NCBI RefSeq assembly: GCF_003334385.1
Contig: NZ_QOWN01000066.1
Length of the DNA: 14,062 bases
Source of the DNA: Escherichia coli
GTDB taxonomy: Bacteria > Pseudomonadota > Gammaproteobacteria > Enterobacterales > Enterobacteriaceae
Direction: 5' to 3' (one strand)
Under the pieces are notes generated by a model that saw only the letters and a list, made by a program, of their open reading frames with translations, ran no database searches and was not told the DNA's origin. A program made the translations under genes and the position numbers. Each line of letters begins with the position of its first letter. Positions within the stretch are counted from its first letter, which is position 1. Below are positions 10,958 to 11,316 of this stretch, piece after piece.

Positions 10958-11224
10958 TCAGTGGCAGACCCGCTCAATTTCAAGCGCGCGGAGCAGGTGG
11001 CCCCATTCGCTGGCTTTCATCGCGGGGATACGCACCCGCTTCTGCTTACTGCAGCGTCTGGCGATATGACTGCTCATCGCCAGGACGTCCGGGTTAATCT
11101 CATCCTGTGCCAGCTCCTGACGTCTGAAGCGGGTATGGCGGTGCAGGGGTTTATTCTCCCGCAGGCACTCTTCACGCAGACGCTTTACATATTCAGCCGT
11201 TGCAAAGATAATTGATGGTCTCAC
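10958..11224 (-). CDS. Hypothetical basic protein, 88 aa (GTG start)
   Basis: GTG at 11224 with an AAGGAGA Shine-Dalgarno 7 nt upstream. Lies between the 144-aa gene and rpn in the same orientation. An almost fully overlapping antisense ORF (10961-11215, +) also exists, so the assignment is tentative. Confidence 0.45.
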   Translation of the reverse strand: MRPSIIFATAEYVKRLREECLRENKPLHRHTRFRRQELAQDEINPDVLAMSSHIARRCSKQKRVRIPAMKASEWGHLLRALEIERVCH

Positions 11225-11290
11225 AAATATTTCTCCTTATGTTGTTGATGACTGCCGCTCTTCCTGGCCGGGAAGCAGCGGCGGAGAGAG

Positions 11291-11316
11291 GCAGGGTTTA
11301 TCGCCCTGCTTTTTTT
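11291..11316 (+). terminator. Plus-strand rho-independent terminator (stem GCAGGG / CCCTGC, loop TTTATCG, then T7)
   Basis: Read directly from the sequence. The T-tract only fits a + strand transcript; the minus-sense RNA has no U-tract. Overlaps the stop codon of the 144-aa gene. Confidence 0.55.

Follow-up and report, generated by a model that had tools for sequence, protein, structure and literature searches.

The stretch of Escherichia coli DNA considered here (14,062 nucleotides (nt) of contig NZ_QOWN01000066.1, assembly GCF_003334385.1; hereafter the window) comes from the oriT-proximal leading region of an IncI1-type resistance plasmid. Its + strand is best explained as encoding, at 11219-11316, a cis-antisense small RNA (sRNA) of ~98 nt, related to the antisense RNA AS-pc01, that would repress translation initiation of ygdA, an 88-residue gene on the - strand (10958-11224); we put the probability of this reading at roughly 0.7. 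A preliminary description of the window had proposed a + strand RNA of ~100 nt, running from ~11220 to 11316 over the ribosome-binding site (RBS) and start codon of the same gene, and this proposal is backed both by a comparison of 45 homologous loci and by homology with AS-pc01. The predicted 98-nt RNA lies between a promoter-like sequence within the first codons of ygdA and an intrinsic terminator; it is fully complementary to the Shine-Dalgarno (SD) sequence (AAGGAG) and GTG start codon of ygdA, as well as to the intergenic region between ygdA and the upstream cistron, ygcA (the names are those used for plasmid R64).

The putative promoter comprises a -35 element, TTTACA (11184-11189, + strand), located inside ygdA codons Y12-V13-K14, and a -10 element, GATAAT (11207-11212, + strand), located inside codons I5-I6, with a spacer of 17 nt, exactly as the preliminary description had placed them. 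The pair scores 10/12 matches in a promoter scan, a value within the range of chance for the region (2 such matches found versus 1.3 expected per 3.5 kb), so that its significance comes from conservation across loci. The comparison set consisted of 45 loci from IncI, IncF and other Enterobacterales plasmids, representing 43 distinct RNA sequences. At all 45 loci the pattern T[TG][TG]ACA-N17-NANNAT is present at the same position opposite the first ~15 codons of the ygdA homologue, with TTTACA or TGGACA as the -35 variant at the equivalent site in every case. In the background the pattern is rare: a scan of both strands of the 44 loci that were retrieved (284,528 bases scanned) gave 46 occurrences, only 2 of them outside the antisense elements. 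In 41/45 loci an extended -10 motif (TGn) precedes weak hexamers (AACAAT, CATGAT, GACGAT), and the four loci that lack TGn, including the window, have a near-consensus GATAAT or AATAAT; these observations suggest that TGn compensates for weak -10 hexamers and that promoter logic has been kept across the loci. The codons beneath the -35 element are frozen at synonymous sites, i.e. the Tyr codon is TAT in 22/22 cases, the Lys codon is AAG in 30/30 cases, and the Val codon is GTA (30) or GTC (12) in strict linkage with the next codon, AAG (Lys) or CAG (Gln), respectively, whereas other invariant Val, Leu and Arg columns of the ygdA family use 3-4 codons. Hexamers, a spacing within the 16-18 nt typical of sigma-70 promoters and conservation beyond coding constraint were thus all found in the sequence. 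Both the promoter hexamers and the terminator are invariant among IncI plasmids.

With respect to the RNA itself, we infer a 5' end at 11219, i.e. the seventh nucleotide after the -10 element and the start of the Rfam alignment described below, and the 3' end would lie within the U-run at 11310-11316. The RNA covers the anti-start triplet, CAC (11222-11224), and the anti-SD sequence, CTCCTT (11233-11238). A 103-nt + strand RNA from this region folds at -48.4 kcal/mol (z = -5.96), with none of 200 shuffled sequences being equally stable; the - strand RNA of the same region gives z = -3.2. The 98-nt RNA has a predicted fold of -44.0 kcal/mol with three domains. In stem-loop 1 (SL1; 11219-11251) the anti-start CAC is in the stem, and most of the anti-SD is in the apical loop, UUUCUCCU (11231-11238), which holds five of its six bases (CUCCU of CUCCUU). 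Stem-loop 2 (SL2; 11252-11284) has a core of GCCGC...GCGGC at 11254-11282. Stem-loop 3 (SL3; 11285-11316) is the intrinsic terminator, with the core stem formed by GCAGGG (11291-11296) and CCCTGC (11304-11309), a TTTATCG loop and a run of seven T residues at 11310-11316. The claim that 11291-11316 can terminate a + strand transcript only is upheld, since the GC-rich hairpin is followed by the T7 run on this strand and there is no T-run on its - strand side. Another scan, designed to find stable hairpins that adjoin T-runs, assigned the hairpin -11.1 kcal/mol and found it to be the sole canonical + strand terminator in the leading region. A general terminator scan of the window did not list the 11291-11316 hairpin, apparently because the G-T pairs which that scan allows extend the stem into the T tract, leaving no tail.

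Across the 45 loci, predicted RNAs of 94-105 nt were observed, all of which end in an invariant GCAG/CUGC stem base followed by T4-7; the inner pairs of the terminator change in a compensatory manner (GC 19, AU 13, CG 1). Folds calculated for each of the 43 distinct sequences predict the three-stem-loop plan in the large majority, and likewise a 5' hairpin with the anti-SD in or beside its loop. Covariation was assessed for the SL2 and SL3 pairs in an alignment of 33 sequences, with shuffled and slid-partner controls. In these sequences 95.6% of the SL2 and SL3 cells are paired, compared with 28-58% when the partners are slid, and 7 of 14 pairs have changes on both sides, amounting to 53 cells versus 19.5 +/- 3.3 in the shuffles (0/500 reaching the observed value). 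The sequence of SL2 is lineage-specific, yet four of its six consensus pairs have changed on both sides with 93.8% of cells remaining paired, and among IncI plasmids its arms alternate between GCCGC/GCGGC and GCCGG/CCGGC. Because the MAFFT alignment misaligns part of SL1 and SL2, the covariance model built from it (R1, see below) carries terminator pairs only, and the support for SL1 comes from the per-sequence folds and not from covariation. There are 221 G-U pairs on the antisense strand versus 71 on the other strand, and the antisense strand has the more stable fold in 35/43 sequences; together with the side on which the U-run lies, these properties are consistent with an RNA that is read from the + strand. 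Outside the terminator the RNA sequence is very poorly conserved between lineages and tracks the local 5' untranslated region (UTR) of each ygdA homologue, such that only the position of the RNA, its structure and the anti-SD are kept.

The closest described relative is AS-pc01 (Rfam RF02875, "Antisense to pHK01_035"), which Rfam describes as an antisense RNA gene. RF02875 matches the IncF plasmid pHK01 (an IncFII CTX-M-14 plasmid) at 109.6 bits, and the match is exactly antisense to the 5' UTR and opening 6 nt of a ygdA homologue encoding 76 residues. When aligned over its full length (model positions 1-99) to 11219-11314 (+) of the window, RF02875 gives 25.6 bits (E = 0.025 in a 551-nt search), which is far below its gathering threshold of 79 bits; at that threshold neither the window nor any IncI locus tested gave a match in the Rfam search, and at E<0.1 RF02875 missed the Serratia, Yersinia and pSB89A variants altogether. 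A covariance model, R1, built from 31 non-IncI sequences only, matches 11215-11315 (+) at 35.7 bits (E~9e-8, model positions 1-100), this being its only significant match in the window, and it recovers the IncI copies at four further loci as well. The window element is thus not a member of RF02875 by the curated threshold but belongs to a broader family of ygdA-antisense RNAs, within which it is a divergent IncI1 relative of the known cis-antisense sRNA AS-pc01. The parallels between the two are extensive: their targets belong to the same family (YgdA and the 76-residue pHK01 protein share 42% identity when aligned), each 5' end is a few nucleotides inside the coding sequence, each RNA extends over the SD and the entire 5' UTR as far as the stop codon of the preceding gene, both have ~99 nt with three stem-loops and a U-run, both have a TTTACA-17-(TGn)-10 promoter layout, and both are downstream of an Frpo-like single-stranded-DNA (ssDNA) promoter. 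They differ in that the sequences are strongly diverged, that the IncI1 version has a near-consensus -10 element without TGn and, in the window copy, a GTG start codon, and that the neighbours are ygcA upstream and an Rpn nuclease gene downstream in the window but DUF3560 and methyltransferase genes in pHK01. AS-pc01 has been detected by quantitative reverse-transcription PCR (RT-qPCR) in outer-membrane-vesicle preparations of one Shiga toxin-producing E. coli (STEC) strain (PMC12370729).

Several points weigh against this assignment or qualify it. The -35 element overlaps a conserved Val-Lys dipeptide, so that part of its conservation is protein-driven, and the shuffle controls overstate the independence of the loci because these are phylogenetically related. 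The low RF02875 score of the window also counts against the assignment. We know of no reported regulatory effect of AS-pc01 on its target. Plasmid antisense RNAs were reportedly identified by RNA-seq by Jiang et al. in 2017. The status of AS-pc01 as a detected transcript in pHK01 depends on this work, on the Rfam description and on the RT-qPCR result in PMC12370729, and the IncI1 antisense RNA is a prediction from sequence. The word 'antisense' does not occur in the leading-region papers searched, so that these lend no direct support to the timing model outlined below.

The target gene, ygdA, is the conserved partner in this arrangement. In tblastn searches its homologues were found in at least 5000 plasmid records, many of them IncF, and also in 40 loci of genome contigs from many Enterobacterales genera, with identities of 31-46% and a conserved C-terminal motif. 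Four distant plasmid homologues whose annotation was inspected are all situated amid leading-region genes (psiA/psiB, antirestriction genes, DNA methylases, DUF4942). YgdA is basic and hydrophilic (isoelectric point 10.27; grand average of hydropathy (GRAVY) -0.70) and has no membrane segment, its best 19-residue Kyte-Doolittle window being 0.10. Searches of Pfam, NCBIfam, PADLOC and PHROG revealed no family match for YgdA, and a sequence profile search of the PDB gave no match. The AlphaFold2 (AF2) model comprises three helices (mean predicted local distance difference test (pLDDT) score 74.7), for which Foldseek found no significant match in the PDB (best E 0.64). An HU-like identity (PF14908) was considered, since 5/19 relatives match this family at E<=1e-3 (best 7.8e-5), but it was rejected as the all-helical AF2 model does not look HU-like.

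An 84-residue open reading frame (ORF) on the + strand, 10961-11215, mirrors ygdA almost completely, and this had been considered to make the coding strand ambiguous. The - strand frame is the one that is conserved at the protein level, and between 13 and 93% of synonymous shuffles, depending on the gene, leave the antisense strand open over an equal or greater length; coding by the + strand ORF was rejected on this basis, and it is a shadow ORF, which removes the ambiguity. The antisense strand is also open over most of the gene in most ygdA homologues, a composition effect that the synonymous shuffles reproduce.

Turning to the locus as a whole, positions 10700-11700 of the window are 99.8% identical to the E. 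coli plasmid pN31b; the region was found in 1350/5426 complete E. coli genomes, nearly always plasmid-borne, and ~2000 plasmids in PLSDB carry the locus. Relaxase genes are located to the left of the region and the rightward genes are on the - strand, from which it follows that the + strand is the transferred strand (T-strand). Upstream of ygdA, ygcA (11316-11750, -; 144 residues) has a stop codon, at 11316-11318, that overlaps the U-run of the sRNA terminator. It matches phrog_1987, of unknown function. In GenBank record CP067953 ygcA is labelled 'post-segregation killing protein PndC', and other listed records carry the same label over the region; as ygcA has no NCBIfam or PADLOC match and matches only PHROG families of unknown function, this label looks like an annotation error. 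Downstream of ygdA, ygdB (9979-10893, -) encodes an Rpn family nuclease and is followed by a - strand terminator (9947-9967), which probably closes a ygcA-ygdA-ygdB operon. Directly after the full-length ygdB is a 69-residue ORF (9747-9956, -) whose similarity to the Rpn family is confined to the C-terminal end (TIGR01784 positions 219-273, E = 5e-7). Intragenic antitoxins have been reported for Rpn proteins, and this ORF could be either an Rpn remnant or a small Rpn C-terminal protein akin to them.

The ygcA-ygdA genes are preceded by a 590-nt element on the transferred strand (11751-12340, +) of the ColIb-P9 ssi / Frpo class 1 ssDNA promoter type, which as ssDNA forms a long predicted hairpin (-177.5 kcal/mol, z = -9.0). 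Three dispersed copies of ~350-590 nt, 85-88% identical, were observed, i.e. window 11751-12340 upstream of ygcA, window 8912-9261 upstream of a DUF4942 gene, and pN31b 18446-18983 upstream of ssb; all three are in keeping with the ColIb-P9 ssi1-3 / Frpo class 1 ssDNA promoters. A related Frpo-like element is present upstream of the pHK01 ygdA homologue. The class 1 promoters ssi1-3 and 5' rapid amplification of cDNA ends have been described (PMC12672017), ssDNA promoters drive early genes after conjugative entry (PMC12672017; PMC11541004), leading-region genes lie on the T-strand (PMC11541004), and early induction from ssDNA promoters fades as the DNA turns duplex (PMC12672017). The antisense promoter is in the same region and on the same strand as these elements, the T-strand carrying its -35 and -10 sequences, and expression from it, as from them, would depend on whether the incoming DNA is single- or double-stranded. 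However, Frpo fires only when the folded T-strand makes its hexamers duplex, whereas 11184-11212 has no inverted-repeat partner or complementary arm on the T-strand, and was rejected as an Frpo-type ssDNA promoter for this reason. The lack of such an arm, along with the location of the sense operon behind an ssDNA promoter, suggests opposite dependence on strand state.

Several further features of these leading regions were observed. A second type of ssDNA hairpin is present at 13587-13900 (inverted repeat 13622-13653 / 13828-13859; z = -4.7), upstream of a klcA-like antirestriction gene encoding 141 residues (13161-13586, -); its copies in pN31b precede both the klcA-like gene and ardA, and it matches the 'class 2' ssDNA promoters of PMC12672017. 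Compared with pN31b, the window plasmid does not have the ~5.9-kb ardA-ygaA-psiA-psiB-parB-DUF905-ssb block, and the junction (window 11804-12300 versus pN31b 12052-12600 and 18446-18983) is inside the ssi repeat, which suggests that the block was lost through recombination between two ssi copies. A 23-nt inverted repeat (9361-9383 / 9430-9452; AAAAAGTGAAATTTCTTCACTTT / AAAGTGAAGTTTTTTCACTTTTT) lies just upstream of the + strand helix-turn-helix gene ygeA (9465-9716) and is a possible operator. The last ~70 bases of the window (13990-14062) match neither pN31b nor other aligned IncI plasmids, the matches stopping at 13945-13989, and may be the edge of an insertion element. In the leading region of pSB89A, a group II intron is present ~130 bp upstream of the antisense-RNA region (RF02001, 145.5 bits, and RF00029, 50.1 bits, at 510-581 and 2096-2267, with an ltrA gene between them).

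The preliminary description had likened the locus to type I toxin-antitoxin systems, in which case YgdA would be toxic, the antisense RNA would be an unstable antitoxin, and the pair would mediate post-segregational killing or addiction as for SymE/SymR or hok/sok (pnd). The part of this likeness that concerns antisense overlap of the initiation region stands; the part that concerns the product, i.e. a hydrophobic toxin peptide, does not, given the GRAVY value of -0.70 and the lack of a Hok-like ORF in any of the six frames, and overall the likeness is not supported. The layout is formally that of SymR/symE, in which the RBS and start codon are overlapped by an antisense RNA made in cis from a promoter just inside the coding region, and the ygdA locus is plasmid-borne and very widespread. 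YgdA is, however, a hydrophilic, basic protein with no membrane segment and without a Pfam, NCBIfam or PADLOC match, toxin families included; its gene is not a stand-alone module but an internal cistron of an operon with an ssDNA promoter, surrounded by genes for establishment and anti-defence; and the 'PndC' label belongs to the neighbour ygcA and has no support from homology. We consider a toxin-antitoxin role unlikely. A hok/pnd locus in particular was rejected, the 'PndC' label in the record that was checked being on ygcA (144 residues) and there being no Hok-like peptide in any frame. In the E. coli chromosomal SymR/symE, a type I toxin-antitoxin-like pair, the antisense RNA lies over the RBS and start codon for a small nucleic-acid-related, non-membrane protein, and the mRNA is transient. 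The ygdA antisense RNA resembles SymR in size, in starting from just inside the target coding region and in covering the RBS and start; the targets have no sequence or domain relationship, YgdA being without an AbrB-like or other Pfam match, and SymE is SOS-induced whereas ygdA is behind an ssDNA promoter. With Sok/hok and PndB/pndA (of plasmids R1 and R483), the locus shares a plasmid antisense RNA acting on the translation-initiation region of an upstream reading frame, but it has neither a Hok/PndA-type hydrophobic peptide nor a mok-like overlapping frame, and Rfam searches of the window gave no hok/sok match. A further plasmid parallel is provided by FinP of F-like plasmids, a constitutive cis-antisense RNA against the traJ 5' UTR and RBS that represses translation and promotes cleavage by RNase III. 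Like FinP, the RNA here is encoded on a plasmid, folds into stem-loops and is complementary in cis to one target mRNA, at its 5' UTR and RBS. FinP, however, depends on the chaperone FinO and regulates transfer genes, whereas this RNA has three hairpins, is in the leading region and implies no chaperone; there is no sequence similarity with FinP, nor a FinP match in the Rfam searches of the window.

Other explanations dispense with the sRNA or with its cis role. The hairpins might instead be a cis-acting structure, either in the sense mRNA, for 5' UTR control or as a processing or stability site, or in the transferred ssDNA, as a priming or protein-binding site, with the + strand terminator merely insulating the operon from stray antisense transcription. 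The hairpins do form on - strand RNA too (z = -3.2), the covariation alone is largely strand-neutral and leading regions are rich in functional ssDNA structures; yet such a structure would leave unexplained the promoter with its fixed position, 17-nt spacing, TGn compensation and frozen synonymous sites, as well as an invariant U-run on the antisense side only, and it is at odds with the G-U excess on the antisense strand and with Rfam, where the IncF homologue is described as an antisense RNA gene. We regard it as improbable. That the RNA is real but acts mainly in trans on mRNAs of the host or of other plasmids, its overlap with ygdA being incidental, seems quite improbable. This possibility draws on the detection of AS-pc01 by RT-qPCR in the STEC vesicle preparations (PMC12370729) and, judging from the titles of the papers on pHK01 and IncX3, on the action on host functions of other plasmid sRNAs that the laboratory behind AS-pc01 has described; the conservation of position, structure and anti-SD only is, however, the pattern of a cis-acting antisense RNA and not that of a conserved trans seed. 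Finally, a promoter-like match may lie by accident beside an accidental hairpin and T-run, and a single 10/12 promoter match is within expectation for the region. The same arrangement was observed at 45/45 loci, with only 2 background matches in 284.5 kb, and the covariation, the Rfam match and the leave-out model agree; chance is extremely unlikely, and the comparative data effectively refute it.

Under the preferred explanation, i.e. a cis-antisense sRNA repressing ygdA, a sigma-70 promoter within the first 14 codons of ygdA would direct synthesis of the sRNA from duplex DNA, ending at the terminator that abuts the ygcA stop codon. The sRNA would pair with the mRNA over the ygcA-ygdA intergenic stretch and the site where ygdA translation begins, probably starting as a loop-loop contact at the SD, and this pairing would be expected to block ribosome binding; it may also form an RNase III substrate, leading to cutting of the polycistronic ygcA-ygdA-ygdB(Rpn) mRNA. 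FinP/traJ and SymR/symE act in this manner. Transcription of the RNA in IncI1 plasmids, repression of ygdA and the dependence of timing on single- or double-stranded DNA are all inferred. The proposed timing is that the sense operon would be transcribed from its ssi/Frpo-type promoter while the incoming strand is single-stranded, when the sRNA would be absent, and that the sRNA would be switched on once the complementary strand has been made. Synthesis of YgdA would then be confined to the first minutes after conjugative entry, and the gene would be silent in established plasmids. It is possible, if still doubtful, that the antisense RNA and the ssDNA promoter together constitute a strand-state switch, conserved among conjugative plasmids of the IncF, IncI and other Enterobacterales types, in which the sense mRNA arises only from single-stranded DNA and the antisense promoter fires only once the complementary strand has been synthesized; the sRNA would then actively end zygotic expression of YgdA. 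Through polarity or RNase III cleavage, such a switch may also shut off the downstream Rpn nuclease or DNA methylase genes and keep these, too, silent in established plasmids.

The overall results bear on how leading-region genes are controlled in IncI1 and IncF plasmids, which are major carriers of extended-spectrum beta-lactamase and other resistance genes. The AS-pc01 model in Rfam covers the IncF branch only, so that the IncI and other variants escape annotation pipelines; a broader antisense RNA family is defined by the alignment and model from this analysis (A2, A4 and R1). Work on leading regions, including ssDNA promoters and anti-defence islands, has been concerned mainly with how early genes are switched on, and a conserved, duplex-dependent antisense RNA would be a candidate off-switch for at least one of these genes. 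If correct, this would add a post-transcriptional shut-off layer for leading-region genes. The presence of a conserved antisense RNA over the widespread and conserved YgdA family suggests that the dosage or timing of YgdA matters.

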